This document shows positions 5,446 to 31,281 of a DNA stretch of 32,000 nucleotides, piece by piece. Below the pieces are notes generated by a model. It saw nothing but the letters and a program-made list of their open reading frames with translations, did not search any database and was not told the origin of the DNA. Numbering within the stretch: the stretch's first letter is position 1; the number at the start of each line of letters is the position of its first letter. The stretch spans positions 4,286,768 to 4,318,767 of the forward strand of contig JAIZWK010000001.1 of the NCBI GenBank assembly GCA_021498095.1. Direction: 5' to 3'. The position numbers were made by a program, and so were the translations under genes. The DNA comes from Candidatus Harpocratesius repetitus. Lineage in GTDB: Archaea; Asgardarchaeota; Lokiarchaeia; Sigyniarchaeales; Promethearchaeaceae.

Positions 5446-5734
5446 GAGGTTATAGCAGAATTCGAAAAATTGAAGAAAATTCGGAAATCTTGCATCATTT
5501 ATCCATAAACTCCAAATCTATCCCAATTTTAAAATTGTCGAAAAATCGTTTAAGAAAAATATATATAATTAAGTCAATAATTCAAGGAAAAATGATGGAA
5601 ATGTGAAATTCTTGACCGCATTTAAGGGTTTAAAAGTGCCAACTCAAATAGTAATTGGATGCGCAGGAGTATTGTCGAAAATATTGGCCCAAAAGATAGA
5701 ATTTGATTAAGATAAAAAAAATTGCTAGAGCCTC
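5446..5734. mobile_element. MITE-like element, copy 1 (289 bp), inverted relative to copies 2 and 3
   Basis: Ends GAGGTTATAGCA...TGCTAGAGCCTC (10/12 inverted match). Flanked by TATT (5442-5445 and 5735-5738). About 96% identical to the reverse complement of 15288-15576 (about 12 mismatches, hand count). Confidence 0.9.
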
Positions 5735-5847
5735 TATTGAATTATTTTTATTTATTAATGATTTGAAGAAAGTTAAATTCTTAAATTATTTATAGAGTAT
5801 ATTACAATAATATAATCATATAAAAATTAATTGGAGACTTACAAAAG

Positions 5848-7119
5848 ATGTTTTTTATTCAAAATATTAACCATGAATTTACAACAATTGAAGTTATCGT
5901 CATGGTTTTGTACGGTGCCTTTATACTTCTCTTAACATTATTTGGTAGTGATCTTTTAGCAAGATACATTCGAGCAGATAAAAGGACTCGTGGCGACGCA
6001 GCCTATATGATCTTCTTTATTATTTCATGTGCAATGTTGGGATATGGGTTGTATCTATTTCCTGCTTTCATCAACTATTTTCTACAAAAGGATTTTGAAG
6101 CGCAAGATCTAAACTTAAAATGGATCCCAGCATTCCAGTATGTTATCATGTTATCTATTATAGTCTCGATTGGATATGTATGTTTATTGATTTTATTAAA
6201 AAATAAAAAAGTCATTTTATATTCAATCAGTCTTTTTGGAATTCTCACAGTATTGTACATGTTTATTTGGATGGTTTTATGCGCAATTGATCCAGAAAAT
6301 ATTCGGTATGTTGTGATTAGTAGCCCAACAATGATTCCGGTAATTTTAGTCATTTTTGGATTTGGTATTATTGATTTCCTAGGTATTGTATATATTTTAG
6401 TTGTAAAACTATCACCACAACGAGAAGTCCGGCGTCGAGTACTATTTGGAATTTTTGGAATTATAATCGCAGGTGTGGGTGGATTTATTGAAATTTCGAT
6501 TCGAAAGATGTCAAATTATGATCAGCAATGGTGGTATGTTTACGGAACACTGATTGAACTCTTTGGTTTTCTCATCATGCGCTATTTCTTCTTATCTATT
6601 CCATCATATGATGAATTTTCATGGAAATCCGGTATGAAAGAACTCCATGTAATCATAGCTGAAACAGGAATTTCTCTATTTTATCAATCTTTTGCAGAAA
6701 TTGTCGCTTCTGAATTGCATGGTGATATTAAGGTTACTGCAACAATTCCCGAAGATGAGAATAGACCGAATACAGACTTAGTTGCAGGTGGTCTGGTAGG
6801 AATTAAAGGAATGCTTTCAGAAATTTCAGGAGACAGGGGAAAATTAGAAAATATTGAAATCGGGGAAAAATCATTAATATTTAAGCAAGGAAAAGTAGTT
6901 CTTTGTCTTTTATTAGCCGATGAAAATCTAGGAGTATATCACAGTATTTTGGAAGAATTGGTTGAAAAAATCGAATTGTCCCATCCAGATTTGGCAAATT
7001 TCAATGGTGATACTCGAAAATTACATATTCAACCGATTGTGGAAGAAGTTTTTGATATCAAACCAAAGAAAAAGAAACAGATAAAGAATAATCAAGTTTC
7101 AGAAGAGCAAAAAGTATAA
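5848..7119 (+). CDS. Seven-TM membrane protein with C-terminal longin/roadblock-like domain
   Basis: Seven hydrophobic segments in aa ~12-250, then a soluble domain from about nt 6634 (ELHVIIAETGISLF...DLVAGGLVGIKGMLSEI...IEIGEKSLIFKQG...LCLLLAD...ILEELVEKIE) with the beta-beta-alpha-beta-beta-beta-alpha pattern of longin-like folds. The domain call is by eye. Confidence 0.6.
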   Translation: MFFIQNINHEFTTIEVIVMVLYGAFILLLTLFGSDLLARYIRADKRTRGDAAYMIFFIISCAMLGYGLYLFPAFINYFLQKDFEAQDLNLKWIPAFQYVIMLSIIVSIGYVCLLILLKNKKVILYSISLFGILTVLYMFIWMVLCAIDPENIRYVVISSPTMIPVILVIFGFGIIDFLGIVYILVVKLSPQREVRRRVLFGIFGIIIAGVGGFIEISIRKMSNYDQQWWYVYGTLIELFGFLIMRYFFLSIPSYDEFSWKSGMKELHVIIAETGISLFYQSFAEIVASELHGDIKVTATIPEDENRPNTDLVAGGLVGIKGMLSEISGDRGKLENIEIGEKSLIFKQGKVVLCLLLADENLGVYHSILEELVEKIELSHPDLANFNGDTRKLHIQPIVEEVFDIKPKKKKQIKNNQVSEEQKV

Positions 7120-7125
7120 TTGATC

Positions 7126-7133
7126 TTTTTTTT
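7126..7133 (+). terminator. Oligo-T tract, probable archaeal terminator
   Basis: T8 run starting 7 nt after the stop codon, followed by T-rich sequence, between convergent genes. Confidence 0.45.
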
Positions 7134-7300
7134 CTATTAATTTTTTCTATTGATTATCTCCTTATTTTCATTCTAATTTTTCATTTTCATTTGATTTACT
7201 TGATTTTACTTTGGTATTTACTGAAATTAAATGAAAATCTTAATCTCTCTAAAAATACCTAAAAAAACAAAAAAATAATCCATATTTCAAAGATTAAAAT

Positions 7301-7687
7301 TTATAAAAGTTGTAAAATTCTCAGAGCAAGAAAAGCTGCATTTTTTCCGTTGTCTATTCCCACACACGCAACCGGAACTCCTGGTGGCATTTGTGCTATA
7401 GATAACAAAGCATCTAACCCACCTAATTTCGCACTTACTGGAACACCGATTACAGGTTTATCTGTTTTTGAAGCTACAACTCCTGGAAGTGCAGCAGATA
7501 ATCCTGCTACACAAATAAAAACTTTGGCATCAGTTGATCGAACGTATTCAGCTAATTCATCAGGATTTCGATGAGCAGATAGAATTTTCAATTCATGATC
7601 TATATTCTTTTCTTCCAGCACAGATAAAGCTTTTCTGTAAATTTTTTCATCTGAAGTGGAACCAGCAATTACAGACACTAAAACCAT
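7301..7687 (-). CDS. purE: AIR carboxylase / N5-CAIR mutase (short form)
   Basis: [46 protein letters not shown] motifs. Confidence 0.95.
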
Positions 7688-7859
7688 AGGAAAATTAAAT
7701 TATCATCAAAAAAAAAATTACTGATATATTATTAAAATCTCTTGATAAAAAGATACATTTCACACTATTTTAGAAGAAGAAAAATTACAAAAAAATGGAA
7801 GATGAAAAATAAATAATTATGTATTTAATAATTTAAAATTAAAATTACGCTAGTTAACG

Positions 7860-8657
7860 TTAGTTAAAATCGCGCAGTGAAAACTTATGCCCCATACTCC
7901 ACAGCATTTTGAAATATGTCTTGCTGTAGTTGATTAATCGACTTTCTTGAATAAGAAACACCATATTTTCATCTTTAATTGCAATTTTTAAAAAAGACGT
8001 TAGAAAGATAATCATTTCTGTTTGATCAAATAAAATTGCGTCAAATAATACATGTTTTACCATCTGAACCTTTGCAATTGACACCAATTTTCGCCAAACA
8101 TTCTTATTTTTTATATTAAAATGAGTTTCATCCACGATAACATTGATCTCTACTTTTTTCTCAGATAAATCCAAGAAAATATCAAAATACTCCGACAACA
8201 TTTCTTCATTAGGATTTTTCAAGAAGATGGTAAGATCTTTTGAAGTTCCTCGAATCATTTCTTCAACTTTTTGGAAGATTTGACCGTTTAAAATCCAAAT
8301 GGGTGTTGATTCAACTGTTTCTTCAGCCCCATATAATGGTTCAAGTTTCTCTAGCAAAGCAGACTCTATACGCTGGTATTTTTCCTCTAATTCCTTTTTC
8401 GCCAATCTGGCTACAAACGCAGGGCGTTCAGCTTTATATTTCATCGGTCGACCACTAATTACTTTTACCCATTGCTGGGTTTCTAAATTAACTAGCACAT
8501 CATAAATTCGACTATAAGGAATGGAAGTCCGATCGCTTAATTCTTTCGCAGAACTGACTCCGTTTGTAATGAGGGCTACGAATGCTCGAGTTTCATAATC
8601 CGTTAAACCATATTCTTTTAATGCCGCATATACTTCTTGGGAGATATTTGTTTTCAT
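7860..8657 (-). CDS. TrmB family transcriptional regulator
   Basis: LKEYGLTDYETRAFVAL...SAKELS...IPYSRIYDVLVNL...GRPMKY wHTH, followed by a PLD-like effector domain. Start taken as ATG 8657 (MKTNIS); the track starts at 8693. Confidence 0.9.
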   Translation of the reverse strand: MKTNISQEVYAALKEYGLTDYETRAFVALITNGVSSAKELSDRTSIPYSRIYDVLVNLETQQWVKVISGRPMKYKAERPAFVARLAKKELEEKYQRIESALLEKLEPLYGAEETVESTPIWILNGQIFQKVEEMIRGTSKDLTIFLKNPNEEMLSEYFDIFLDLSEKKVEINVIVDETHFNIKNKNVWRKLVSIAKVQMVKHVLFDAILFDQTEMIIFLTSFLKIAIKDENMVFLIQESRLINYSKTYFKMLWSMGHKFSLRDFN

Positions 8658-8842
8658 GCACATGCCCCGCAGATAAATGTACTCAAAGTCCAACTAACTA
8701 ACTTACCCACTTACTACACTCTCATTAAGCTGAGAAAATAATTAACTCTTTCATTTTTATTAAATAATTATCTAGATAGCATAATTTCAATATTTATAAA
8801 AATTTACATAGATTTTAATGCATATAATGTCATTGAATCGAT

Positions 8843-9265
8843 ATGACAGGTCAATTTCACGATCAATTTAATTACAATGGAAAGAGTATGAAATTAGTGG
8901 GAATTGATAGAACAGGATTATTTAATATCGATGATTGTGCATTAGTTCCATTTTCAACATGTAAAGCTTGCTGGCGAGGCTTTTTATGTATATATAATAT
9001 AAAAAACAACCTCCTTTTTCTAACAGGTTTGTGGATTAACTTATATGACCCTTTACCAATCCAAGGTCAAATGCTTTAATCAGAACATTCACTTTTCTTA
9101 TACGAATATAATAACTTAAATATCCTAATCAAATTTTCAGGAACAATTCTTTTAGCAGATAAAATGATTTCTTCTGAATATATCCAAATGGGATTTCAAG
9201 ATTCAACTACTTTTGAGATAGGAATAAAATTAAAGTTCAATAAAGAAAAATCAGTTAATGATTAG
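8843..9265 (+). pseudogene. Conserved hypothetical gene interrupted by an in-frame TAA at 9077-9079
   Basis: The same frame continues after the TAA for 61 codons (SEHSLFLYEYNNLNILIKFSGTILLADKMISSEYIQMGFQDSTTFE...) to TAG 9263-9265. The two halves recall one uncharacterised family (ST..CWRG(Y/F)...F(S/T)G.IL...Y(I/V)xMGF); the family is recalled, not searched. Confidence 0.7.
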
Positions 9266-9320
9266 AAGAAAAAAGAGATAAGAGATAAAATAAAAAATAA
9301 AATTTGAAGAAAAAAAAACC

Positions 9321-10982
9321 TTACATCATACCAGGAGGCATTCCACCCATGCCACCCATACCACCCATACCACCAGGTGCTCCACCAGCAGGACCTTCAG
9401 ATCGGGCACCTGCTATTATATCATCAATTCGTAAAATCATTTGAGCACTTTCTGAAGCGGATTTAATCGCTTGCTTTTTCACAGCAACAGGCTCAATGAC
9501 ATCAATTTTAGTCATATCATCTTCAACTTTCATATCTTCCAAATTTAAACCTGCATATTTCTTGCCTTCACCATGAGCGGCTCGGATTTTCATAAGCATT
9601 TCAATTTGATCTAAACCTGCATTTTCTGCTAATGTTTTTGGAATGATATCCATGGAATCAGCAAAAACCTCTACAGCTAATTGCTCACGACCCTCTAAGG
9701 TTTCAGCAAACTTGCGTAATCCTTTTGCGACTTCAGCTTCAGGAGCACCACCTCCACCCAAAATGCTTGGTTCTTCAATGCAGTCTTTAACTACTGAAAG
9801 AGCATCGTGAATAGAACGCTCCGTTTCATCTACAATCAAATCAGTACCACCTCGAATGAATATCACAACGGATTTTGGATGCTTGCATTGCTCGATAAAC
9901 ACCCAATTTTCATTCATTACCTTGCGTTCTTCAACTAATCCTGCAAATCCAAGACCATCTGCAGACATATCATCTAAGTTAGAATATATTACACCACCTG
10001 TTGCTTTAGACAACTTTTCTAAATCAGATTTTTTAACACGACGAACTGCTGCAATTCCTTTCTTTACTAAGAAATGTTGTGCCATATCATCAATACCTTT
10101 CTGGCAAATAACCACATTTGCTCCTGTAGCTGCAATTTTATCAACTAAATCTTGAAGCATCTGTTGTTCTTGGTCTAGAAAGGCGTTTATTTGTTCAGGA
10201 CTTGTAATTTGAAGTTTCGCATCAAATTCAGTTTTTTCAACTTCCACAGCGGCAGAAATTAAAAGAATTTTGGCGTTTTCTACCCTTTTAGGCATTCCAG
10301 AATTCACTATTTCTTTATCTAATATAATTCCTGAAATAAATTTAGTTTCTTCGATGGAATCGCCTTCTTTCTTCTGAATTTGAATTCGGTCTAAATCAAC
10401 AGTATTTTGACCTTCAACTTCTTCACGAACAGCTAAACAAGCATTCACAACAATATCTGCAATTAAATCATCATACTCGTGAATGATTTTAGAACTCATT
10501 GAAGTTTTTGCTGCTTTCTTCAACATATCTTTATCAGTTGGTGAAATTTTTGTTGCCATTCCATCTAAAATTTCAAGTGCCTTATTTGCGGCTTTTCGAA
10601 AACCCTCGGTAATTACAGTAGGATGAATCTTTTGATCGAGCAATTTCTCTGCCCGTTTCAACAATTCACCAGCTAATATAACAGAAGTTGTGGTTCCATC
10701 ACCCGTTTCTTCATCCTGAGTTTTCGCGACTTCCACCATCATTTTAGCTGCTGGATGCTCCACTGAAATTTCTTTTAAAATAGTTGCACCATCATTAGTG
10801 ATTGTGACATCTCCGAACTGATCGATTAACATTTTATCCATGCCTCTTGGGCCAAGTGATGATCGAACAGCTTCAGCAATGGTTTTTGCTGCGAGTATAT
10901 TATTTCGGGACGCGTCTTTACCGCTTGTGCGTTCCGAACCTTCTTTTAAGATAAGTACTGGAGTTCCTCCGAGTTGTGACAT
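9321..10982 (-). CDS. Thermosome subunit (group II chaperonin)
   Basis: [32 protein letters not shown], and a C-terminal GGM-repeat tail. SD GAGGT 7 nt upstream of the start. Confidence 0.98.
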
Positions 10983-11036
10983 ATTTTTTACCTCAATACA
11001 ATTTTATGGATCTGAGGAAGTCTAAGTCACCAAAAA

Positions 11037-11050
11037 TTTTAAACTTTTTT
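11037..11050 (-). promoter_or_regulatory. BRE/TATA promoter of the thermosome gene
   Basis: Minus strand AAAAAAG-TTTAAAA, about 55 nt upstream of the ATG. Confidence 0.5.
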
Positions 11051-11275
11051 TCTTAGATCAAAACTTCTTAATATTAACAGTCTAATTACTGTTGGAGAAA
11101 TAGGATAAAAAAGTATATTTTATCTAATTTGAAATAAAATTGATTTTCATGGAAAAAAGCAGTAATAAAAAGAAAGCTTTTATACAATGCTAAAACAAAG
11201 AATAGAATAGATCGATAATCCGACTGCTTTGGAAAATAGTATAATGATCAAAATATTCCAATTAGTTGGAAATTT

Positions 11276-13288
11276 ATGAAGGAAGAATCAAAAATGGTTG
11301 AGAAATTTGGATATTTTGGGAAAATATTGTGGGTGAATTTAAGTACTCATGAAATTAATGAGCGTGAAATTCCAGAAGAATGGTATCACCAATATTTAGG
11401 AGGATATGGTCTAGCAGCGCGTATTTTATTTGAAGAAATTCCGTTTGATGCTGATCCATTGGGACCTGATAATATATTGGCATTTATGCCAGGATTATTG
11501 ACAGGAACAACTACACCATTTACAGGACGGTATATGGTTTGCGGTAAAAGTCCATTATCAGGTGGTTGGGGGGATTCAAATAGTGGAGGAACGTTTGGTC
11601 CTGAAATTAAAAGATGTGGATATGATGGAATTATTTTTGTAGGAAAAAGTGAAAAACCAGTTTATCTTTTGATAAAAGAAGGGAAAGCAACGATTGAGGA
11701 TGCATCTTCTTTATGGGGTAAAGACGCTATAGAAACTGACGAACTTTTAAGAATTAAACATGGAAATAGAATCCGAGTTGCAGCTATTGGCATGGCAGGA
11801 GAAAATTTAATTCGCAATGCGGGAATAGTAAACGATAAAGGGCGTATTGCTGCGCGCTCTGGTTTAGGAGCAGTAATGGGATCGAAAAAATTGAAGGCAG
11901 TAGCCTTAATTGGGGCTACCAAATATCCTTATAAGAATAAGAACTCTGTAATTCAAATGACTAAAGAATACAAGGATAAAATGAAATTTAAGGATTTAAT
12001 GTCGCGTGTGATGATGAAATTCAATAACATCCTACCAGGGATGATGCGCCTGATTAAAATGGACCTCTTTTTGACAGAAGGGATGCAGGTAACCATGATG
12101 TCAAAATATGGAACGGGGTTAAGTACCGCAATTTCTTCAGAAGTGGGAGATGCACCTGTGAAGAACTGGAATGGTGTGGGTTATATTGATTTTCCCCAAA
12201 AAAAGGTCAGAAATCTTACTGCACAAAATCTTGAACAATGGAAAGTGAAACCTTATGGATGTTTCTCGTGTCCTCTAAGATGTGGAGCTATTCTATCAGT
12301 GCCTGAATTAAATTTGAAAGAAACCCATCGTCCAGAATATGAAACAGCCACAGCATTTGGGGCATTAATTTTAAATGATGATGTAAATACTCTGCTTAAG
12401 GTGAATGAATATTTAAATCGAGCAGGATATGATTCAATTTCAGCTGGCGGTGTTGTTGCTTTTGCGATTGAGTGTTTTGAAAACGGAATTATAACAAAAG
12501 AAGATACGGGAGGTCTTGAGATTGGATGGGGTAAATCAGAGAGTATTATGCCATTACTTGAAATGATTGTAAAGCGCGAGCACATTGGAGCGATATTAGC
12601 AGATGGAGTCAAAATTGCAGCAGAAAAAATAGGAAAAGGTGCAGAAAAATATGCAGTTCATGCAAATGGTCAAGAATTACCGATGCATGACAGCAAATTC
12701 GGTCCAAGTTTAGCCACAACATATGTATCCGATCCCACTCCAGGGCGACATACGGCAGCAAGTATAGATTTTATGGAGGTTGGACCAATTGGGAAATTTA
12801 TTAAAGGTCTTAAAATACCAAAGTCAAAGAAGCATAAGTACAATTCAAAAGGTCCCGCTCAAGCATTCATGGCAAAAATACACCAAACAGTCAATGCTCT
12901 TGGATTCTGTAATTTTGCAACATGGTCAGGTAATATTCGATTGCTTGATTTTATTTTCCAAGCAACGGGAATACAGTTAACAAACGATGATTTGATTAAA
13001 ATTGGATATCGTATTCAAACTCTACGACAAGCATTTAATGCAAAACACGGTGCAATTCAACATCAAATTAATACTCGTGCACTAGGAATTCCACCAATGG
13101 AAAAGGGACCTCTAAAAGGAATAACATTAGATATAAAAACCATGGTAAGGGATTATTATGAATCAATGAATTGGGACCCTGAAACGGGAATCCCAACTAA
13201 TTCTGTTTTGGAACATCTTGAATTAGATTTTGCAAAAACCTCGCTAAAGTTAAATACTAAGAACACCACTATAGTAATGTTACCTTAA
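11276..13288 (+). CDS. aor: Tungsten-dependent aldehyde:ferredoxin oxidoreductase family protein
   Basis: GKSPLSG...SNSGG, AAIGMAGE, AARSGLGAVMGSKKLKA, C..CPLRC, EYET, DSIS.G and later Cys ligand. Alternative start ATG 11294. Confidence 0.95.
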   Translation: MKEESKMVEKFGYFGKILWVNLSTHEINEREIPEEWYHQYLGGYGLAARILFEEIPFDADPLGPDNILAFMPGLLTGTTTPFTGRYMVCGKSPLSGGWGDSNSGGTFGPEIKRCGYDGIIFVGKSEKPVYLLIKEGKATIEDASSLWGKDAIETDELLRIKHGNRIRVAAIGMAGENLIRNAGIVNDKGRIAARSGLGAVMGSKKLKAVALIGATKYPYKNKNSVIQMTKEYKDKMKFKDLMSRVMMKFNNILPGMMRLIKMDLFLTEGMQVTMMSKYGTGLSTAISSEVGDAPVKNWNGVGYIDFPQKKVRNLTAQNLEQWKVKPYGCFSCPLRCGAILSVPELNLKETHRPEYETATAFGALILNDDVNTLLKVNEYLNRAGYDSISAGGVVAFAIECFENGIITKEDTGGLEIGWGKSESIMPLLEMIVKREHIGAILADGVKIAAEKIGKGAEKYAVHANGQELPMHDSKFGPSLATTYVSDPTPGRHTAASIDFMEVGPIGKFIKGLKIPKSKKHKYNSKGPAQAFMAKIHQTVNALGFCNFATWSGNIRLLDFIFQATGIQLTNDDLIKIGYRIQTLRQAFNAKHGAIQHQINTRALGIPPMEKGPLKGITLDIKTMVRDYYESMNWDPETGIPTNSVLEHLELDFAKTSLKLNTKNTTIVMLP

Positions 13289-13454
13289 CACTAAAATATA
13301 GTGTGTGAATTTTAGGTGATTTTTGAGTTTTTTTTTTGCATTCTTTTTTATACCTCTGGAAATCCTTTAGAGCTCCTTTGGGAATTTTTTTATCTATAAA
13401 TTCTTTAATCAAATTATATAAAAAGAAAAGAAAATAATAATAATTAACAAAAAA

Positions 13455-13727
13455 ATGAAAATTATTGTGAATTTGGCGGGAAGTTTTGGATTAAAGAGCA
13501 TTAATTCAGAGGTATCAATAGATTTAAAGGAAAATGCAAATGTTGAAGAATTGTTACAAGCATTACGCCGACTACTAAAAATAAAAGTATTTTCTGTTAA
13601 AGGAATGAAATCAAATTTTATTGTTGTTATGATTAATGGAGAGAGAATTGACCCAAAATTTGCTAAAAACCGTAATATTTGCGAATCAGATTATATCAGC
13701 ATTGTTCAACCAATTCAAGGTGGTTAA
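13455..13727 (+). CDS. MoaD/ThiS ubiquitin-like sulfur carrier
   Basis: 90 aa, C-terminal GG, ING...D.I.I..PI.GG pattern, directly downstream of aor. Confidence 0.9.
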   Translation: MKIIVNLAGSFGLKSINSEVSIDLKENANVEELLQALRRLLKIKVFSVKGMKSNFIVVMINGERIDPKFAKNRNICESDYISIVQPIQGG

Positions 13728-14025
13728 AAGCTTTATTTAATTATATCAAATTCTAATAAATATTAAGTACAGATTAATTATATAAAGTCTATTCTCTTCT
13801 TAAGTATTCAAGATTTCCACTAATAATCGTGAAACTTCAGATATTCTATATCCCCACTACAAAATTATATTCGTGTTCTGGCAATTGAGCAATTAATTAA
13901 ATCAATTAAATTTAAATAAGTAGTGCTCTAGCTAATTAATAAAGAGTGATTTAACTAGACATTTATTTGAAGATAAGAAATGGACTACAAAAATCATTAA
14001 TAAACCGAGAGGTGAAAAAGAGATT

Positions 14026-15246: not shown

Positions 15247-15287
15247 TATTACTTATACTTATTTTTTTTTATTTTGAATTTATTTAA

Positions 15288-15576
15288 GAAGCTCTAGCAA
15301 TTTTTTTTATCTTAATCAAATTCTATCTTTTGGACCAATATTCTCGACAATATTCCAGCGCATCCAATTACTATTTGAGTTGGCAATTTTAAAACATTAA
15401 ATGCGGTCAAGAATTTCACATTTCCATCATTTTTCTTTTAATTATTGACTTATTTATATATATTTTTCTTAAAAGATTTTTCGACAATTTTAAAATTGGG
15501 ATAGATTTGGAGTTTATGGATAAATGATGCAAGATTTCCGAATTTTCTTCAATTTTTCGAATTCTGCTATAACCTC
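15288..15576. mobile_element. MITE-like element, copy 2 (289 bp)
   Basis: Ends GAAGCTCTAGCA...TGCTATAACCTC, flanked by TTAA (15284-15287 and 15577-15580). Inverted near-identical copy of 5446-5734. Confidence 0.9.
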
Positions 15577-15627
15577 TTAATTATTACCAAAATATATTTA
15601 TGAGCACCATTTCCATTTTATATTAAG

Positions 15628-16140
15628 ATGCCATTCTTTGGAAAGTTAGCAACTTTTGGATTTGCTTCTATTTCACAATATACATTTAAGTGGATAATTG
15701 ATCATTTTCCAGATGGTAGTACAATGCTAGAATTAGGTTCTGGAAATGCTACAAAAGAGTTTACTGATCACTATAATGTTTATTCAATTGAACATAATCC
15801 AAATTGGATTGGAAAATTCCCCACTCACTATATTTTCGCCCCAATTAAAGATTACGGCGATTACAAATGGTATGATATCCAAAAAATTCAAGAACAATTA
15901 CCGTCTCACTATGATTTCATTTTAGTTGATGGTCCACCAAAAAAAATTGGACGTGAGGGTTTTCTTCATAATCTACATCTTTTTAATACTGAAGTTCCAA
16001 TGATTTTTGATGACGCAAATCGAGAGGGTGAATTTGAATTAATTCAAAAAGTAGCAACAAAATTACAATATCCTTATAAGATTATAAAACATGGTGTCAG
16101 GAAGAAAATAGGTATTATTTCACATAAAGAAATTGAATAA
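15628..16140 (+). CDS. Putative class I SAM-dependent methyltransferase-like protein
   Basis: MLELGSG (motif I), YSIEH, DFILVDGP, IFDDANR. Confidence 0.7.
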   Translation: MPFFGKLATFGFASISQYTFKWIIDHFPDGSTMLELGSGNATKEFTDHYNVYSIEHNPNWIGKFPTHYIFAPIKDYGDYKWYDIQKIQEQLPSHYDFILVDGPPKKIGREGFLHNLHLFNTEVPMIFDDANREGEFELIQKVATKLQYPYKIIKHGVRKKIGIISHKEIE

Positions 16141-16155
16141 AGAAAATTAAAAACA

Positions 16156-18644: not shown

Positions 18645-19355
18645 ATGCGATTTGAAATTAAACCAAAAACAACAAATAGTGAAGGAAACTCACCCATTTC
18701 AAATGATAAACTTGCTATCATCAAAACATTAAACAGTAAAACCAGACTTGAAGCATTACTTCTGCTTTTTATCTATCGCAAATTAAGCTTAACTAATATC
18801 AGCGAAATCCTGCATAAATCTAAAAATACAATAATTTATCATATGCGCTTGCTAAATGAACAGGGATTGATTACTGAATTGACTGAAAAAGAAGAGCATT
18901 CCATAAAACCCATAAAGTATTTTGTTTTACATCCAGAATTTCACAAGAAATTATACGAACCATTTGAAAAATTGGATAAATCCTCGACTGCAGATATTCT
19001 AAATTACTCTAAAACAATTTTCAAATATAACATCCTTCTATTTGAGACAATTCGAGAATTTCTTCATCAATTGGGGGAATTCTATAATCAAAACCAACAG
19101 CAAATTCACTCAAGCGAAGAAGCACTTCAATTTCATCAAACACACCAAGTCCCTCGAGATTTAATTCCTCTTTCTGAACAAGCATTTCAACAGTATAGAA
19201 AGGATTATGCAGAATTAATGAAAAAGACATTATCTAATATAGATAAAGAAAAACTTGAAGATACTCACGTTATTCACCCTTATCTGGCTTTCAATACGGT
19301 AATTCCTCTAAAAACATTATTTGAATTCCGTACATCAAAGTTAGAAAAAAAGTGA
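18645..19355 (+). CDS. ArsR-like winged-helix transcriptional regulator
   Basis: LNSKTRLEALLLL...LSLTNISEILHKSKNTIIYHMRLLNEQGLI wHTH pattern. Confidence 0.8.
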   Translation: MRFEIKPKTTNSEGNSPISNDKLAIIKTLNSKTRLEALLLLFIYRKLSLTNISEILHKSKNTIIYHMRLLNEQGLITELTEKEEHSIKPIKYFVLHPEFHKKLYEPFEKLDKSSTADILNYSKTIFKYNILLFETIREFLHQLGEFYNQNQQQIHSSEEALQFHQTHQVPRDLIPLSEQAFQQYRKDYAELMKKTLSNIDKEKLEDTHVIHPYLAFNTVIPLKTLFEFRTSKLEKK

Positions 19356-19445
19356 ACAAATTTAGTAAATTTGAACTTAATTAATGTCATCTATATTATA
19401 TGTGAATATCATTTCATTAATAAAATTCAAATAGATTGATTAAAT

Positions 19446-22400: not shown

Positions 22401-22865
22401 CTAGAAACTGCTGATATTGAACCGAAAAAATGGTTAGTGAAAGATTTTTACTTTGATAAAAGCACACAAACACTCTTTTTCGATGGAAACCCTGAAAAGA
22501 ATTCGAAGAACGTAAAAAAATCAAAAGAATCGAAGAACTCAAAAAAGAATGCTAATGGTTTCCAATCAAAAGAAATATTTAAATCAAATAGCCAAAATTC
22601 TTCTATTCCCTGGATTCGACCAATAACACTTGAAATGTGGGAATATTCAATTGGTGGAATTCCTCAAATTGCTCAATTTCTTAAAAGTCGCACATATTCC
22701 CCTATACGTAAATGGAATTCAATTCAGCGATCACTTTCTTATGAAGAACTGATGTACTTATTAAAAATGATTACAGCTATTAAGCAAAGCCTCACAGTTT
22801 TACCAGAAATTGATTCGTATTATGCAAAAATGGATATAATTGAGGAAAATAAGGATAATTTGTAA
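19446..22865 (+). CDS. Type IIG restriction-modification enzyme (fused nuclease, N6-adenine MTase and type-ISP-like target recognition domain)
   Basis: N-terminal PD...EAK nuclease motif (KPDMT...HIEAK), GVVYTP, ILDPAAGT (motif I), GNPPY (motif IV), C-terminal YRGWD.R...FPRIP...IGG. No helicase motifs. Alternative start ATG 19458. Confidence 0.88.
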   Translation: MSSSMEIPEIILVSPKSLQQYAQKTARNLKSGTASEITYYDDFKQFLETIFPPSKGYLIQSGYHIPGSQNKPDMTVTFNGIVLFHIEAKKPYTPIEEIIAYKPGSRLYNQIQRYQNEGTQVLLTDFLNLWIVKPPKDKSTNSNKLERNKVKFQFSCRLLEEKTSHDLIPAQNAPQHLQELLNITCAEHLQSISNARKLIYHLTNIAKNIKEKTISLINARKTLKKLTPSEKSAADYLLQIKEDFAKSIFKEEHEPETKMFADLFAQTIVYGAFSAWIKYSQNQHNKQNCSFNLQIVGDYLPFGSFLRDLFLNLKNKTPKEFRSLLQEMELQFQKTKFTPIINNSETLITTFYSDFLRLYDPKTAKERGVVYTPYEIVHFIIEGIDFLLKRWMNKPMGILSSTKHKIIPTKHFSSISSTKLIQSKLDKSIKKFQIPIDRLRILDPAAGTMAFASGLLHVAKEKISEKFPDQPSLAQQEFHHWVTNEFFENVYAFEILMAPYVLGHIRTYLSLENLGLTLNAENYPLKSYLMNTLMSPPKNKALDEWIFHNAEIGKEIKEALRIRDDKEIFVIMGNPPYNLSSQNDCKWINEKIMDYKEGLHERNKKILSDDYVKFIRFAQWKIEKVGRGIVAFITNSRYLDGQMFSVMRQSLQNTFDHIYIVNLHGDYRKKETGNPFDIKVGVCIAFMVRIDNKTPKNAAIHYMDVPHPTKEEKFQILGKGFNERQFKLLPQTPKSYFIDIDTSMLEHYQNFIPIDEFFKARPISGIMAGKDRLVIDCDIDNLHQNMHAFFNKDYSQLDKWKIRYNNTKSWQRDRVFQTTNFQRAIKSIRPMLYRGWDYRFIVYDRSIVEGHRMGYIDQISPENPAITVSKSSRKSKFCTAFIADELIEKCYMSVTDTAYAFLLRYKGKSNVIVPKLPYPVNGDALFYYIYAILHCPLYRTRYDELLRKGFPRIPIPSKALIFENLSRLGKKLADLHLLKITVDPKLETADIEPKKWLVKDFYFDKSTQTLFFDGNPEKNSKNVKKSKESKNSKKNANGFQSKEIFKSNSQNSSIPWIRPITLEMWEYSIGGIPQIAQFLKSRTYSPIRKWNSIQRSLSYEELMYLLKMITAIKQSLTVLPEIDSYYAKMDIIEENKDNL

Positions 22866-22876
22866 GAAAAAATCCG

Positions 22877-23899
22877 CTAATTTTTAATTATTCTAATTTT
22901 GTGCTTCCAAGGTTTTAAATTCTGCCAGCGCTGGATAACTGATGGAGGAAAAATGAGGGATAAACCTGCCAAATCACCTACAAAATCTTTAAGTTCTGAA
23001 GGAACAAATTTAACTCCTTCCGCTATTTGCCGAAATGAATGTTCAGAAATATAAGCAATAATTCTCGGTAATAAAATATCCTTATTATTCATAAACACAC
23101 TTCCACCAATAATTATTATTTCTGGATCAGTCAAGCTAATAATATCACTGAACATTATTCCCAAGTATTCAATAGTTTCATGAATCAAGGTTTTTGCTTT
23201 CGGATTTCCTTCACGGTAAAGATCAAATACTTTTTTGGTGGTCAACTCTGTTCCATCCTTAACGATTATACCTTGTTCTTTTGCTCGACGCAAAATCGAT
23301 TTCCCAGAAGCAATACTTTCAATGCATCCATGTTGGCCACAACCGCAAAGTGGACCATCTTTTTTAACAATCAGGTGTCCAATATGACCAGCGTTCTTGG
23401 ATTTTCCTTCTAAGAGATGCCCGTTTACAATAATCCCTCCACCTATGCCGGTACTTATAGTGACATAAACTAAATTAGAAAATCCTTGACCAGCCCCAAA
23501 AAGATGTTCTGCTTTAACTGAACTTACGCAATCATTAGCCAATCCATATTTACATTGAAGTCCAAAATATTCTTGTAAAGGAATAAGGTAGGGAACATCT
23601 TTCCAGTCATTTCCATCTCCAGAAATATTTGGTGTCCAAATTCGTGTTCCACGATCAACAAATGGACCTGCAGAACTTGTTCCAACTCCAAAGACTTCTT
23701 CTTTTTGAATTTGTAGTGTACTCAGTCCCAATTCGATCATTTCAATGATCTGATTGATTAATGTGGTTTCAGAACCTTTTTTTTGAGTTGGGCGGATAAT
23801 TTTAAGTAAGAATTCAGAATCAGTAGCAAAAACTACTCGAACATTTGTCCCACCAATATCAACACCAATAAAGTACTTTCTATCCACTAATTTTACCAC
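22877..23899 (-). CDS. ROK family sugar kinase (glucokinase-like)
   Basis: GVDIGGT, NDC, STGIGGG, GHIGH, CGCGQHGCIE Zn motif. GTG start at 23899, or at 23887 behind a GGTGG SD. Confidence 0.93.
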   Translation of the reverse strand: MVKLVDRKYFIGVDIGGTNVRVVFATDSEFLLKIIRPTQKKGSETTLINQIIEMIELGLSTLQIQKEEVFGVGTSSAGPFVDRGTRIWTPNISGDGNDWKDVPYLIPLQEYFGLQCKYGLANDCVSSVKAEHLFGAGQGFSNLVYVTISTGIGGGIIVNGHLLEGKSKNAGHIGHLIVKKDGPLCGCGQHGCIESIASGKSILRRAKEQGIIVKDGTELTTKKVFDLYREGNPKAKTLIHETIEYLGIMFSDIISLTDPEIIIIGGSVFMNNKDILLPRIIAYISEHSFRQIAEGVKFVPSELKDFVGDLAGLSLIFPPSVIQRWQNLKPWKHKIRIIKN

Positions 23900-23900
23900 C

Positions 23901-24602
23901 TTAACTATTACGCTTTTTACGTAGTCGAGCTAATTCTTTTTCTAAATCGAATAATTCATCATCGGGATTCTTATTTCTTTCATCAGAATCATTACTAGAT
24001 AAACCAGGTGCATCAGGAAGTTGATCAAATGCTAAATCTGGTTCGGTATTGCTACTTCCCTTTCCTTTTATTTCTCCAAATTCTTGGCGAATTTCACGCT
24101 CCCTTACTTCAATTGGATGCAATTTTTCAGCCAATTCTTCCTTTCTAATAAAAACTTGATATAATGATGCAAATGGGCCGTAACCGACATCCAATTCATT
24201 TAACATTTTTTGAATTTGAGGATTTCCTAAGGTTAATCGTAATTCACATAAATTTTTAAGCATATCATATCCAACTTCGTCAAAATTATTCATATCTTGG
24301 GCGGTAGATAATTGAAACTGCACATCATCCAGATTAGTTCTAAATTCATCTAACTTATTTGCCCACTTTCGATACAATAAAGCACTTTTCATCAATTTAA
24401 AAGCAGCATGTTTATCTCCATCCGCATAACGTTTTTGAGCTTTAGTATATGCATGTTTTCCTTGAATTTCCATTCGTTTAAACTGCCCTTCTAATTGGCG
24501 ATTGAAGATTTTCAAAGCCATAATGGTTTGTTGCACATTACTTGTCCCAAGGCGGATATTAGAGCGAGCCAACCATTTATAAAAATTTTCCACAGAGCCC
24601 AT
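23901..24602 (-). CDS. ESCRT-III / Snf7-domain protein, CHMP1/Vps46 (Vps2/24/46 class)-like
   Basis: LK...QL..Q.KR......K.....GD...A......AL.........L......DDV..QL.TAQ.M matches the CHMP1/Did2 helices 1-3 pattern. C-terminal DELFDLEKELARLRK resembles a MIM1 (CHMP1 DELSQRLARLR). Aligned from memory. Confidence 0.8.
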   Translation of the reverse strand: MGSVENFYKWLARSNIRLGTSNVQQTIMALKIFNRQLEGQFKRMEIQGKHAYTKAQKRYADGDKHAAFKLMKSALLYRKWANKLDEFRTNLDDVQFQLSTAQDMNNFDEVGYDMLKNLCELRLTLGNPQIQKMLNELDVGYGPFASLYQVFIRKEELAEKLHPIEVREREIRQEFGEIKGKGSSNTEPDLAFDQLPDAPGLSSNDSDERNKNPDDELFDLEKELARLRKKRNS

Positions 24603-24666
24603 TTTTCTCTTATATTACCTTATAGACACACACCTTTAATTTTTTCGCAAAATTGATAAGTACACG

Positions 24667-25314
24667 ATGCATAATTCTCCTAATTATATGAAATTCTTCA
24701 AAAAAGAAAAGATTTCACCTGAAATAAAGAGCCAAATATTTAATTTTGCAAAAAATTACTATGATATTTCCAATGATTTGCATGGATGGGGGCATATTCA
24801 AAGAGTATGGACAAACTGCAGAAAAATTATTGCAAATCTTAATAAGAAAGAAGAAGTTCAATTAGACCTTTTAGAGTTAGCTGTGTATCTCCATGATATT
24901 GGTCGAAAACATGAGAAATTAAGAAATAAAAATCATGCACTTATATCTGCGGATTTATCTAGGCAATTTTTAACTTCACTTTCAATTCCTGAACCAATTA
25001 TAAATGCCATAAATCACATAATCATTAGCCATTCCTTTTCATTGGGTGTGCATGCCCAAACATTAGAAGCACAGATTCTTTCTGATGCAGATAAACTTGA
25101 TGCCCTTGGATCAATAGGTATCTATAGAGTTTGTGCTTACCAAACCCTTCATGGAGGGAATATACAGTCGATCATATCACATTGTGATGAAAAATTATTA
25201 CTTTTGGATAAAAAACTTTATTTAGATGAATCTAAACGCATTGCGGCACCCCTAATGGAACAAATTCGAGATTTTAAAGAAAATTTACAAAAAGAGTCAA
25301 ATCGTTCCATTTAG
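24667..25314 (+). CDS. HD-domain phosphohydrolase
   Basis: HGWGHIQRV, YLHDIGR, H...SA, IISHS, SDADKLDALG. Confidence 0.9.
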   Translation: MHNSPNYMKFFKKEKISPEIKSQIFNFAKNYYDISNDLHGWGHIQRVWTNCRKIIANLNKKEEVQLDLLELAVYLHDIGRKHEKLRNKNHALISADLSRQFLTSLSIPEPIINAINHIIISHSFSLGVHAQTLEAQILSDADKLDALGSIGIYRVCAYQTLHGGNIQSIISHCDEKLLLLDKKLYLDESKRIAAPLMEQIRDFKENLQKESNRSI

Positions 25315-26019
25315 ATATTTTTTGCGTAATTCGGGAGGAAATTTCTCAATTGCATATCGTAACATAGTTCGTGGCATATTTTTATAATGTTGGACTAAAA
25401 AAGCTTCTTCAGTTGGGCGATGTCGATTTCCAACTTCACGCAACATCCATCCCACCGCTTTATGAATCAAATCATGCGGATGGTTCAAAAGTATTGAAGC
25501 AATTTTAAGAGTATCATCAAATTTACGCTCTTTAATGAAATATAAAGTGGTAATTATTGCTATTCGTTGCAACCATAACTCTCCACTTCGGGCAAATTCA
25601 TATAATATTGATTTATCTTTGTGCATTAGGTAAGGCCCGAGAATTTTTGGTGCAGTACCATCCACTAAATCCCAATTATTACAGTATTTAATATTTTTCA
25701 AATAAAATTGAATTACTTCATCTGCTTTCTCTTCAGATTTAGCCTTATTAAATTTCTCTACCAAAATAAAGAAGGCACATTGACGAATTTCATGATATTC
25801 ATTAGAAATAAGCGGTTGGATGTCTGATAAAGGAAGTTTTGAGTAATTTTTTGCGACTTTTCTTACGTTAGGAACCCTCACTCCTAAAAATTTATCACCC
25901 TCACCATAACCACCAGGAAATGCTTGAAAAAATTGCGGAAGCTTTTCTTTTTTCTCAGATTCACTTAAATGTTCCAATTTTTTTCGTATTTCAGACAGTA
26001 GTTCCTGTGTTTGTGCCAT
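25297..26019 (-). CDS. DNA alkylation repair protein (AlkD-like HEAT-repeat family)
   Basis: GDKFLGVRVP, NNWDLVD, LWLQR.AI, DLIHKAVGWMLRE, MPRTMLRYAIE. Confidence 0.92.
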   Translation of the reverse strand: MAQTQELLSEIRKKLEHLSESEKKEKLPQFFQAFPGGYGEGDKFLGVRVPNVRKVAKNYSKLPLSDIQPLISNEYHEIRQCAFFILVEKFNKAKSEEKADEVIQFYLKNIKYCNNWDLVDGTAPKILGPYLMHKDKSILYEFARSGELWLQRIAIITTLYFIKERKFDDTLKIASILLNHPHDLIHKAVGWMLREVGNRHRPTEEAFLVQHYKNMPRTMLRYAIEKFPPELRKKYLNGTI

Positions 26020-26052
26020 GGATTACACTTTTCCATCATTCATTCAAAATTA

Positions 26053-26718
26053 TTAAGATTTTATTTCCATTTTTTCGAGAACCAACTCTAAATAAGATTG
26101 GCGAATTGAATCTTTTTCAGAAAATCCCAATTCTTGTAAGAGATCCAATAATATGTTTGTAGCAACCTGTTTTTCATTTATTTTTTGATTTTCATCTTGT
26201 TTTAGACTCTGGTTTTGATTTTGAGATAAATTATATTCATCTTTTGCATCAGATACCATAATTTCTGCTTCCATAAAAGCTCCAGGTAATTTTTCGATGT
26301 GATCTATCAATATTTCTATATGTTTATCTTGATATTGAAGAGAAAAGACATCACGATGCTTCTCAACTTGACATCGCATTACAAAACCCACTGCTGTTAA
26401 TATTTCTTCCATCGATTTTTCATTTTGCACCATACAGATAATTTCACGGCGAGTTTTTATTATACCTGGTTCTTTAGGACCCTTATACGTTAAATCGATG
26501 TTTGTTTTGCTGGAAGGAGTATCTGAAAGAATTGTTTCTTCTGACATACGAAGGCGCAAAGCTTCATCAGTTTTGGCAAAACTTTCTCTCGGAGGTTGAG
26601 TATCAAAATATTTATCAATATGATGCAAATGAGCGATCTGTAGCGCACCTAATTCCTTCAATTTCTGTCGTAAGGCTTGTTCATCTCGTACTCTGATTTT
26701 CATTTCAACTTCCAACAT
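26053..26718 (-). CDS. cyaB: CYTH-domain protein (class IV adenylate cyclase CyaB-like)
   Basis: ExExK signature at MLEVEMK (start 26718), D.YF, ALRLR, TYKGPK, REI, V.K.R, EAE, SYLEL. Confidence 0.85.
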   Translation of the reverse strand: MLEVEMKIRVRDEQALRQKLKELGALQIAHLHHIDKYFDTQPPRESFAKTDEALRLRMSEETILSDTPSSKTNIDLTYKGPKEPGIIKTRREIICMVQNEKSMEEILTAVGFVMRCQVEKHRDVFSLQYQDKHIEILIDHIEKLPGAFMEAEIMVSDAKDEYNLSQNQNQSLKQDENQKINEKQVATNILLDLLQELGFSEKDSIRQSYLELVLEKMEIKS

Positions 26719-26825
26719 ATGTAGCTGAATTAAGGTGCCTTGGTTCAAATTTTTTTCGTTGAAATTTCGCGCAAATTCGAAAATTTTAATTTTCATAACA
26801 AATTCATAATATTAACTATAATTCC

Positions 26826-26898
26826 AGCCCCTTAGTGTAGCGGCCAAGCACTTTGGACTCTGAATCCAAAAGCGTCAGTTCGAATCTGGCAGGGGCTA
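26826..26898 (+). tRNA. tRNA-Gln (anticodon CUG), no intron, CCA not encoded
   Basis: Acceptor stem AGCCCCT/AGGGGCT plus A, D arm GTGT/GCAC, anticodon arm TTTGGA-CT-CTG-AA-TCCAAA, T arm GTCAG-TTCGAAT-CTGGC. Confidence 0.97.
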
Positions 26899-27018
26899 TT
26901 AAAGTATTACTTTTATTTACATTATATTCCTTCTCATGCAAGATTTGAATAATATTATCTTTTTTCATAGTTTTTATAAAATTGAAATCTTTTTGAAAGG
27001 CATTTCATTACAAGTAAT

Positions 27019-28230
27019 ATGGTCAAAATTACACCAATTTCCCCATATTTACCCATAAACCCAGAAGAATTTTGCACAAACCCATATGATGTCATTGGGA
27101 AAGAAGAAGAACATCAATTAAAAAAAAATCCTAACTCACTTGTACATCTTATTCTTCCTGAGGGTGAAGGTGAAGAAATATATAAAGATGCTAAAAAAGC
27201 CTACGAACGTTTCAAAGCAGAAAATTTGATTAAAAAAGCCGCACAACCAAGCATTTTTGTGTATAGGCAAGAATCTCCCGAATTTAGCCAAGAAGGTCTT
27301 ATAATGGGTGTTGCGCTTCAGGATTATGAAGATGGAAATATAGTCAGACATGAACATACTCGTGAGAAACCATTGAAAGATCGAACCAAGCATATTGCTA
27401 CAATAAAAGCGGCAACTGGATTAGTCTGGAATGTTTTTCAAGCAGACGCAGAGATAAAAAAACTAATTGAGCAAATGAAACAAACAACACCAAAATTCGA
27501 TTTTCACATGAAAGGTTATCGCCAGTTATTATGGCAAATTACAGATGAAAAGATCATTACAAACCTGAAAGAACTATTTGCAGATCGGAAAATATTTATT
27601 GCTGATGGTCATCATAGGGCAGCCAGTGCAGCAGAATATCGAAAAATGAAACTGGCAGAAGGTGCAGATCCAAACAGTGAACATTCATGGCAATACCTGA
27701 TGACATACGTTTCTTCTGATGATCAAATTTGGATTTTACCATATAATCGGGTTATCCGAAAGTTACCAATGTCAAAAGATGAATTTATCGAGAAATTGAG
27801 GGAAGTATTCACAATTGAATTGGTGGAAAAAGCCTTTAATCCTGATAAAAAACATGTAATGGCAATTTGTGTTCAAGGACAATGGCTGAAAGCAACAGTT
27901 AAAGATCAAAACTTTACCGATCCACGAGACGCATTAGATGTTGCAATTTTGCAAGATCGCGTATTAGATCCAATTTTAGGAATAAAAGATATCCGTAACG
28001 ACAAGAATATCTTTTTCGTAGGTGAAGTGAAATATTATCGAAATCCCGAATTAATGAAGACAGAATTTATTGAAAAACAAGGTAATGACGTATTCTTTAA
28101 CTTGTTTGCGGTAGATATTCATGATATTGAAAAAATCGGTGGTGCAGGTGGAGTAATGCCTCCTAAAAGCACCTGGTTTGAACCTAAATTGTTATCTGGA
28201 TTGGCAATCTATCCTCTTGATGAAGATTGA
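27019..28230 (+). CDS. DUF1015 family protein (ParB-like fold)
   Basis: PYDVI, HEHT...P..DR, IADGHHR, MPPKSTWFEPKL.SGL. Confidence 0.9.
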   Translation: MVKITPISPYLPINPEEFCTNPYDVIGKEEEHQLKKNPNSLVHLILPEGEGEEIYKDAKKAYERFKAENLIKKAAQPSIFVYRQESPEFSQEGLIMGVALQDYEDGNIVRHEHTREKPLKDRTKHIATIKAATGLVWNVFQADAEIKKLIEQMKQTTPKFDFHMKGYRQLLWQITDEKIITNLKELFADRKIFIADGHHRAASAAEYRKMKLAEGADPNSEHSWQYLMTYVSSDDQIWILPYNRVIRKLPMSKDEFIEKLREVFTIELVEKAFNPDKKHVMAICVQGQWLKATVKDQNFTDPRDALDVAILQDRVLDPILGIKDIRNDKNIFFVGEVKYYRNPELMKTEFIEKQGNDVFFNLFAVDIHDIEKIGGAGGVMPPKSTWFEPKLLSGLAIYPLDED

Positions 28231-28385
28231 TATGATAATTAAGCAATATTAAAAAAAAATAAAAAATTAAGGATAATTTCAGAACTTAATTAGTTCTTTT
28301 TTTATTCTTATTCTTCTTTCTGATGAAATTTAAAATTCATTAAGCTGCTTCAATTAATTTTTCCAATCATTTAATCAGCATTATT

Positions 28386-28997
28386 TTAATCTTCGTCATC
28401 TTCGTCATCTTCAGTTACATTTTCATCCTCATCAAGAGGGGAAAATACAACAATAATAGTTATGATAGAATAATTCCAATCATCAGAATCATCGGATAAT
28501 AATTTATCTTGATAAGTAAGCACAGAGAAATTTGAGAAATCAGATCTCTTCATTCTCCATTCACAGAAACCAAATGTATCAGGTTTAGTATTGAAGATCT
28601 TTAAAAGAGCTTTATATACTTGAGATGTAATTATTTTTTTATCAAAATAACGGAACACTTTAGAGGCAACATTATAATTAGAAGCAATAATATCTCTTAG
28701 GCAATTTTGATCTCTGCAAGATTCTAGATCAACTTTTGTATCATAACGAAAGAGAATCTCACTATCAAATGGTAAAGAATCTTCATCATCCAAATCTTCT
28801 TCATCAAGTTCATTGTTATGTTCTTCTATATTATTATCATTTTGTTTTTTTGATAAAAAATACATGGCTTTGATGAATTCTTGAATATCATCTTCATCGA
28901 TTTTCCACAATAAATCGGAAGGATTTAAATAACCATTCCTCCATCCGAAATCAGCAAGATCTATGATCTCTTCTTTTTCAATATATATTTTTTTCAT
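28386..28997 (-). CDS. Hypothetical, strongly acidic protein
   Basis: 203-aa ORF with upstream GGAG SD; D/E-rich tracts (ELDEEDLDDEDS; EDENVTEDDEDDED). Confidence 0.75.
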   Translation of the reverse strand: MKKIYIEKEEIIDLADFGWRNGYLNPSDLLWKIDEDDIQEFIKAMYFLSKKQNDNNIEEHNNELDEEDLDDEDSLPFDSEILFRYDTKVDLESCRDQNCLRDIIASNYNVASKVFRYFDKKIITSQVYKALLKIFNTKPDTFGFCEWRMKRSDFSNFSVLTYQDKLLSDDSDDWNYSIITIIVVFSPLDEDENVTEDDEDDED

Positions 28998-29201
28998 GTT
29001 AAGAATCTCCTTTTTGTACTACTATATTTCATATATCTGAAATGTAAGTTTGGTAATGGAAGGACGAAGCCATTATTTAAAAATGACAACATCATAGCGA
29101 TTTACTAAATCTTCCATTGAGATTCTCTAAAAATATTGAATATATAATGGTTTTGAAATAATACACAAATTTTTTTCATATGAAAAAAAAATTTTTTTTA
29201 G

Positions 29202-29490
29202 GAGGTTCTAGCAACTTCTTTATTTTTGACAGAATTTTCATTTTATTCTTTCATTTTCCGACAATAATCAAACTTATCCAAGAATTATTTCAGTCGGCAG
29301 AAATGAACTTTAGAAAATTTAATGATGGGTCGATTTTTGACTATTATTAATCAAATTATAGTTGAATTTGATAAAAAAAGTTCTAAATTTTTGATCGACA
29401 AATTTTAAATTTGGATGGAATGTTGGTAAATGCGTAAATTATGCAGGATTTTTATTTTTTTATTAATCTATCAAATGTTGATAAAGGCTC
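29202..29490. mobile_element. MITE-like element, copy 3 (289 bp, diverged)
   Basis: Left end GAGGTTCTAGCA, degenerate right end TGATAAAGGCTC, flanked by TTAG (29198-29201 and 29491-29494). Ungapped about 56% identity (163/289, hand count) to copy 2, with conserved blocks at identical offsets. Confidence 0.8.
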
Positions 29491-29510
29491 TTAGAACAAA
29501 GCATTTTTAA

Positions 29511-31259: not shown

Positions 31260-31281
31260 CACAAATATTCTTTGTAGAAAT

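Follow-up and report, generated by a model that had tools for sequence, protein, structure and literature searches.

What are the three 289-bp sequences lying between the genes of a 32,000-nucleotide stretch of the Candidatus Harpocratesius repetitus genome (contig JAIZWK010000001.1, positions 4,286,768 to 4,318,767, hereafter the window), and by what means did they get there? From the letters alone, a first inspection, here called the sequence-only reading, had taken them for three independent insertions of one unannotated family akin to miniature inverted-repeat transposable elements, or MITEs. Following genome-wide searches and comparison with other genomes and public metagenomes, the three elements (c1, c2 and c3; Table 1) are identified as MITEs; they fall into a pair of sister subfamilies of 289 bp, A and B, which are probably mobilised in trans by the transposase of an IS5-like insertion sequence (IS).

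Structure of the elements

On reading the loci, the element boundaries proved to be as first drawn; all three elements have the termini GAGG...CCTC and each is flanked by a 4-bp target-site duplication (TSD) of its own, different at every locus as had been claimed. The repeat search of the window returned a single long inverted pair, with arms 5446-5735 and 15287-15576 (290 nt, 96% complementary), in agreement with the description of c1 and c2 as inverted copies about 96% identical. The 12-bp terminal inverted repeats (TIRs), expected to be imperfect, are GAGGTTATAGCA / GAGGCTCTAGCA in subfamily A, with 10/12 positions matching, and GAGGTTCTAGCA / GAGCCTTTATCA in subfamily B, with 8/12. The elements are placed between open reading frames (ORFs) and carry no gene, as the sequence-only reading had it: c1, c2 and c3 contain no ORF longer than 34 aa, which is also the length of the longest ORF in the A or B consensus. 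Regarding c2, it stands upstream of ORF 15628-16140, the ATG of which is 52 bp past the end of the element.

The relationship of c3 to the other two deserves closer consideration. No convincing MAFFT alignment of c3 with c1 or c2 was obtained in either orientation, no similarity to c1 was detectable by BLASTN over the length of c3, and genome BLASTN left them unlinked. At the level of subfamilies, A and B are homologous over their full length in opposite orientation, as the A profiles match every B copy and vice versa (nhmmer E 1e-6 to 1e-12); the consensuses give a gap-free alignment with 160/289 identical positions (55%) vs. 87 +/- 7 for shuffles. Since the profiles match reciprocally and the consensuses align without gaps, c3 is a normal member of the sister subfamily B. 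In other words, the initial view of c3 as a third, diverged copy was right as to its ends, its TSD and its homology to A, but c3 is not a decayed copy, being instead a typical B member 93-96% identical to its relatives.

Genome-wide distribution

In the genome, a single contig of 4.36 Mb with 31% GC, BLASTN of c1 and c3 identified 58 full-length copies (29 A and 29 B), and profile searches brought the full copies and fragments together to 82 loci, which cover 20.7 kb (0.47% of the sequence). The suspicion that a non-autonomous, DDE-type family would be abundant genome-wide is supported by these copies and fragments, together with an autonomous IS that has the same ends and TSD. Copy length is highly conserved: 42 of the 58 measure 289 bp and another 12 measure 288 bp. 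Among the A copies, five are 100% identical to one another although each stands at its own site with a TSD different from the others, and further identical pairs or triplets exist in both subfamilies. Regarding gene context, in none of the 58 copies do both flanks fall within ORFs of at least 100 aa, though such ORFs make up 84% of the genome, and MITE bases overlapping such ORFs average 1%; some copies are found 8-60 bp from start codons.

Strictly intergenic placement, conserved length and proximity to start codons could also suit repeats with a host function, such as genes for small RNAs or repeats with a regulatory or structural role, spread or kept by selection and recombination rather than by transposition. 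Such an origin is nonetheless extremely improbable. The MITEs match no Rfam family, the sole Rfam match in the window being the tRNA gene at 26826-26898, their RNA folding is no better than that of shuffles (z -0.5, -0.1 and -1.7) and the copies display no orientation bias relative to gene context. Besides, a search of the 40 nearest relatives, two genomes of the same genus included, did not find A or B, the BLAST-type searches returning only short chance-level AT-rich matches, and the TSDs and precise empty sites detailed below are signatures of transposition. A contig collection, with the own genome masked, was also scanned for both ends separated by a gap of 255-280; the two matches retrieved, both in Gammaproteobacteria, are consistent with chance, a handful being expected by rough estimate.

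Insertion signatures and recent mobility

A perfect 4-bp TSD borders 53 of the 58 full copies, vs. 0.75% by chance at that spacing in the genome, and the tabulation of ends, TSDs and copy number that the sequence-only reading had called for gives sharp ends for the full-length copies. The duplicated 4-mers are TTAT (18), TTAA (14), ATAA (8), ATAT (6) and a few others, corresponding to a consensus WTAW in which position 2 is T in 50/53 and position 3 is A in 51/53; directly before the 4-mer a T is favoured and directly after it an A (T-WTAW-A).

Empty sites were reconstructed by joining the flanks over one 4-mer and were then matched within the genome. Paralogous empty sites exist for the copies at 2571863, 1493874, 1799215 and 783737, with exactly one 4-mer in the alignments for 2571863 (TTAA), 1493874 (TTAA) and 1799215 (ATAA). 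For c1, contigs of four public runs were compared with window 4900-6300. In run X4, a 2017 marine-sediment metagenome from a study other than that of the apparent source sample, a contig matches 5315-5441 and 5735-5797 almost perfectly and joins 5441 to 5735, omitting exactly 293 bp (289 + 4). This is an orthologous empty site, and the c1 insertion is therefore polymorphic in nature; another contig of the same run carries an element copy 92% identical. The independent insertions with 4-bp TSDs that had been postulated are borne out, and the single-4-mer empty sites that were to be looked for are found both among paralogous repeats and in an independent metagenome. The insertion polymorphism between samples and the identical copies indicate recent activity. 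In run X3, from a 2025 study, an 84.7-kb contig with flanks about 94% identical lacks the MITE; its interval from 5446 to 5755 is taken up by 200 unrelated letters instead, which may stem from another insertion at this site in a sister species.

As the genome was obtained by long-read metagenome assembly with short-read polishing (PMC8813620), it could be wondered if assembly or polishing had simply duplicated one sequence. This explanation, to which virtually no probability can be granted, is already refuted by the unique flanks and own TSD of each copy and by independent Logan contigs of three studies, which carry the element or the empty site; the copies furthermore diverge from one another by 0-20%.

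The autonomous insertion sequence

An autonomous partner was sought by scanning for pairs of TIR-like 12-mers, inverted relative to each other and bordered by the same 4-mer on both sides; in an exact search for the TIR 12-mers (up to 1 mismatch), most extra matches were chance occurrences or fragments. The scan uncovered one intact IS of 1825 bp, located outside the window (Table 1). This IS is inserted in a copy of a dispersed repeat of about 600 bp, other copies of which are uninterrupted with one TTAA; in yet another copy of this repeat, that exact TTAA holds the MITE copy 1493874. The repeat family itself (e.g. genome 360682-360851 and 6116-6716) counts at least 18 long copies and more than 30 partial matches.

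The 1825-bp IS encodes one intact ORF of 496 aa, which matches PF01609 (DDE_Tnp_1) with 31.9 bits vs. a cut-off of 23. Across 25 aligned homologues, residues D237, D327 and E393 are invariant, the latter within a motif R-x2-I-E preceded by a Y (Y-x2-R-x3-E), and the catalytic D-D-E triad is thus intact. In the AlphaFold model of the transposase (predicted local distance difference test, pLDDT, 83), the nearest folds of the AlphaFold database are ISH11 and IS5 InsH, with template-modelling (TM) scores of 0.58-0.66 by hit; among solved structures, just Tn5 and piggyBac match, and weakly (TM about 0.3; piggyBac 0.32). When the transposase alignment was used as a profile against PDB sequences, no match emerged. 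None of the IS5 NCBIfam models matches the protein at E <= 0.01, and the best NCBIfam match, the IS1182 model NF033551, reaches 32.3 bits, below its cut-off of 270.

Elsewhere in the genome, the 1825-bp IS is represented by a second copy, 5'-truncated, at 88747-89997 and by two left-end remnants. The 87 homologues of the transposase belong mostly to unnamed metagenome contigs of 1.8-2.3 kb, those with a name being from Promethearchaeota/Promethearchaeia, Ca. Harpocratesius sp. or Sigynarchaeota. Two related ISs of other Lokiarchaeia, L069 and L071 (Table 1), have TIRs of the GAGGATCTA[G/T]CA type, the left end of L069 being GAAGATCTAGCA.

Bipartite ends common to the insertion sequence and the MITEs

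The left end of the 1825-bp IS, GAGGATCTAGCAATTTTT, is identical to the right end of A, GAGGCTCTAGCAATTTTT, at 18/19 positions, and to the left end of B at 24/29. The first 145 nt of ten ends, that is the four MITE consensus ends and the six ends of three ISs from three organisms, were aligned and no gaps were needed. A TIR GAGGnTnTAGCA at positions 1-12 is common to the 1825-bp IS, its two relatives and the four MITE ends. Deeper in the element, (T/C)ATCC at 73-78 (ATCC at 75-78) is present in 9/10 ends, one IS end having TATCT, and GTCG is positioned at exactly 92-95 in 10/10, against a background of 0.0009 per position in the genome; on the left side of c1, these motifs correspond to ATCC 5520-5523 and GTCG 5537-5540. 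Searching the genome for GAGGnTnTA-N65-ATC[C/T]-N13-GTCG gave 77 matches, all of them ends of A or B copies, of their fragments or of the 1825-bp IS. Over 400 Asgard genomes, the ATCC form of this pattern has 75 occurrences in the own genome and 2-3 apiece in three other genomes, all Lokiarchaeial, and was not found in the remaining 396; a reversed control pattern had 0 matches in any of the 400.

One of these matches outside the own genome belongs to a 336-bp MITE (G014:C134:3399-3734, i.e. L076:1501-1836) with bipartite ends GAGGTTCTATCAGAAC / GAGGATCTATCAGAGT and TSD TTTA; its host is a genome of another family within the same order.

With their short non-coding sequence, TIRs, TSDs of fixed length and varied sequence, dispersed multiple copies, empty sites and ends shared with an autonomous IS, the elements are MITEs. 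As for the way they move, the classical mechanism of trans-mobilisation is the most likely. Each end bears a bipartite signal, composed of the 12-bp terminal repeat and of the subterminal ATCC...GTCG at fixed distance, the latter being a putative transposase-binding site. Acting in trans, the DDE transposase encoded by the 1.8-kb IS5-like IS would recognise these signals, pair the two ends and integrate the element at WTAW, be it TTAT, TTAA, ATAA or ATAT and often within T-WTAW-A, where staggered cuts would generate the 4-bp duplication.

Several observations weigh against this interpretation. Beyond the TIR and the subterminal motifs, the similarity between IS and MITE is only about 63-65% over some 110-120 bp of AT-rich DNA; only one intact copy of the 1825-bp IS is present in the genome; and the MITE TIRs (GAGGTT[A/C]TAGCA) differ from those of the IS at 1-2 of 12 positions, so that the true parent could be a more closely related IS since lost from the genome. 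The identical MITE copies, for their part, were possibly part-homogenised by short-read polishing of the long-read assembly. The MITEs might then owe their mobility to a different transposase, either that of a lost closer parent IS, that of one of two paralogous ISs with transposases 32% identical to the 496-aa protein, or that of the ISH3-like IS next to c3, an IS whose closeness to c3 speaks in its favour. Nevertheless, the ends of the ISH3-like IS and of all other multi-copy ISs are unrelated to those of the MITEs, the two paralogous ISs depart from the MITEs in their TIRs (GAGTAAATTT and GAGGGTTTCTTG) and TSDs (AAAT and AATT) and have incomplete subterminal motifs, and the bipartite end pattern matches nothing else in the genome. 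A different driver is accordingly unlikely, without being negligible, and from the shared ends we infer that the transposase of the 1825-bp IS, rather than that of a lost close relative, is probably the mover of the A and B MITEs.

Related families and neighbouring insertion sequences

A third MITE family, of 312 bp, comprises 45 full copies (e.g. 2380005-2380316), none of which is in the window. Its TIRs are GAGGATGTTTTA / GAGGGTATTTTA and its subterminal layout is the same, with ATC[C/G] at 75-78 and GTCG at 92-95; a perfect 4-bp TSD is found in 40/45 copies, and is AATT in 27 of them. The paralogous IS at 3573257-3575115 is a candidate driver of this family. At 479211-479813 and 2359475-2360079 of the genome, a B-family MITE contains a nested 312-bp MITE flanked by AATT; these two composites of 603-605 bp are 95% identical and have different flanks and TSDs (ATAA and CTAT), from which it follows that the composite itself transposed and that length is not strictly limiting. 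Altogether, the three related MITE families have at least 103 full copies, nested and clustered ones included.

Other loci were considered as parents and rejected. The ISH3-like IS has ends (A[AT]CATT.AC.ATGTAATTG) that fail to match those TIRs found in the MITEs, and the ends of the multi-copy IS clusters 5-11 are unrelated. For the 262-aa DDE_Tnp_1 loci L031 and L032, inverted-repeat scans in AT-rich DNA gave nothing usable, and region 1261272-1265834 holds ordinary genes and no more than a truncated MITE fragment.

In the vicinity of c3, two additional observations can be reported. At genome 3351159-3349527, too, the 3' portion of a B MITE is followed without a break by the spacer and the ISH3-like IS, which suggests a duplicated composite or a shared insertion hotspot. 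Window 31092-31600 is 99% identical to genome 3376752-3377260 and overlaps an ORF (31282-31998, + strand) with a weak DDE_Tnp_IS240 signal; it is probably another IS.

Table 1. Location of the MITE copies and insertion sequences considered here.
Feature	Location	Strand	TSD	Remarks
MITE copy c1, subfamily A, 289 bp	window 5446..5734	+	TATT at 5442-5445 and 5735-5738	
MITE copy c2, subfamily A, 289 bp	window 15288..15576	-	TTAA at 15284-15287 and 15577-15580	
MITE copy c3, subfamily B, 289 bp	window 29202..29490	+	TTAG at 29198-29201 and 29491-29494	
Intact IS, 1825 bp	genome 2233279-2235103		TTAA	outside the window; found by TIR-pair and TSD scan
Related IS	L069:2624-4448		TTAA	Ca. Harpocratesius sp. 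assembly; 79% identical
Related IS	L071:23-1860		ATAT	ENA metagenome
Paralogous IS	genome 3318102-3319922		AAAT	transposase 32% identical to the 496-aa protein; TIR GAGTAAATTT
Paralogous IS	genome 3573257-3575115		AATT	transposase 32% identical to the 496-aa protein; 14/14 TIR GAGGGTTTCTTGAG
ISH3-like IS, about 1.57 kb, not of the MITE family	window 29509..31084	+		ORF 29679-30989, DDE_Tnp_1; 9 genome copies; 18 bp from c3

Significance for Asgard archaea

No description of MITEs in Asgard archaea exists in the searchable literature, in agreement with the sequence-only reading, which knew of none. Asgard archaea are absent from the examples in the 2024 review of MITEs in prokaryotes (PMC10969869), and a 2026 survey devoted to archaeal ISs brings up MITEs in its background section alone. 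To the extent that the literature could be searched, no MITE/IS system had been worked out in an Asgard archaeon before this one. The species was named for its repeats, reported as 4% of the genome (Wu et al., 2022; PMC8813620), and the system explains part of the repeat load behind this name; by self-megablast at 75% identity or more, the repeated fraction is 7.7%, the thresholds behind the published value being unstated. Beyond this genome, an IS5-like IS clade is defined by its bipartite end (TIR and ATCC-N13-GTCG at 75-95), with named homologues that are Lokiarchaeial/Promethearchaeota and Sigynarchaeota, and the ATCC-N13-GTCG motif provides a ready hypothesis for transposase-DNA recognition. 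Given the signs of recent activity, the elements are useful as strain markers and relevant to the assembly of Asgard genomes.

The genome also encodes an 817-aa PIWI-domain Argonaute (3524960-3527413; L084:7-2460), which matches PDB 8R3Z HrAgo1 end to end with 1857 bits and thereby marks the host as Ca. Harpocratesius repetitus FW102 or a strain almost identical to it. HrAgo1 is a deep-branching PIWI-clade Argonaute performing RNA-guided RNA cleavage, and MITEs are not mentioned in the paper describing it (PMC11217426). Because the host carries this PIWI-like protein, MITEs and ISs are obvious candidate substrates for tests of its natural role. Read-through or antisense MITE and IS transcripts could conceivably supply guides or targets for HrAgo1, an idea based on co-occurrence that must be regarded as a long shot; if true, the link would constitute an archaeal forerunner of transposon silencing by PIWI-interacting or small interfering RNAs. 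This connection is speculative. The MITEs themselves are of an ordinary, textbook class.

Relation to known elements

In the eukaryotic PIF/Harbinger-Tourist and piggyBac systems, a DDE transposase acts in trans to move MITEs into TA-rich targets, and the elements described here would resemble them in this respect. Tourist/PIF elements have a 3-bp TWA TSD, whereas piggyBac elements strictly target TTAA with a 4-bp TSD and have CCC...GGG termini. The present TIRs are unrelated to either. Unlike PIF/Harbinger, with PF13359 (DDE_Tnp_4) and 3-bp TWA, the TSD is here a 4-bp WTAW and PF13359 has no match anywhere in the genome. Unlike in piggyBac, TTAA accounts for just 14/53 TSDs and the termini are GAGG...CCTC; the fold similarity is limited to the TM of 0.32 given above, and the 496-aa transposase matches no piggyBac Pfam model at E <= 0.01, its only match being PF01609.

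Closer are the IS5 (InsH, ISH11) and IS1182 families, with which the transposase has in common the DDE_Tnp_1 core, the D-D-E triad and the Y-x2-R-x3-E motif, its nearest fold being that of ISH11/IS5 InsH. IS5 family members produce a 4-bp TSD at a TA-centred target and have termini starting with GAG/GG, as does the 1825-bp IS. Still, IS5 InsH is about 170 aa shorter than the 496-aa protein, which no curated IS5 model matches, and the score against the IS1182 model is far below its cut-off.

A further parallel is with the MITEs derived from IS5-type ISs in prokaryotes and with archaeal MITEs, for instance SM1-SM4 of Sulfolobus, which reach 25-44 copies per genome (PMC10969869): like A and B, they are small and non-coding, have TIRs and a short TSD, occur in tens of intergenic copies and share their ends with an autonomous IS. 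Compared with the Sulfolobus and haloarchaeal MITEs, by description only, the present elements differ in their Asgard (Lokiarchaeial) host, in their bipartite ends with ATCC...GTCG at fixed distance, and in that two subfamilies 45% diverged keep the same 289 bp.

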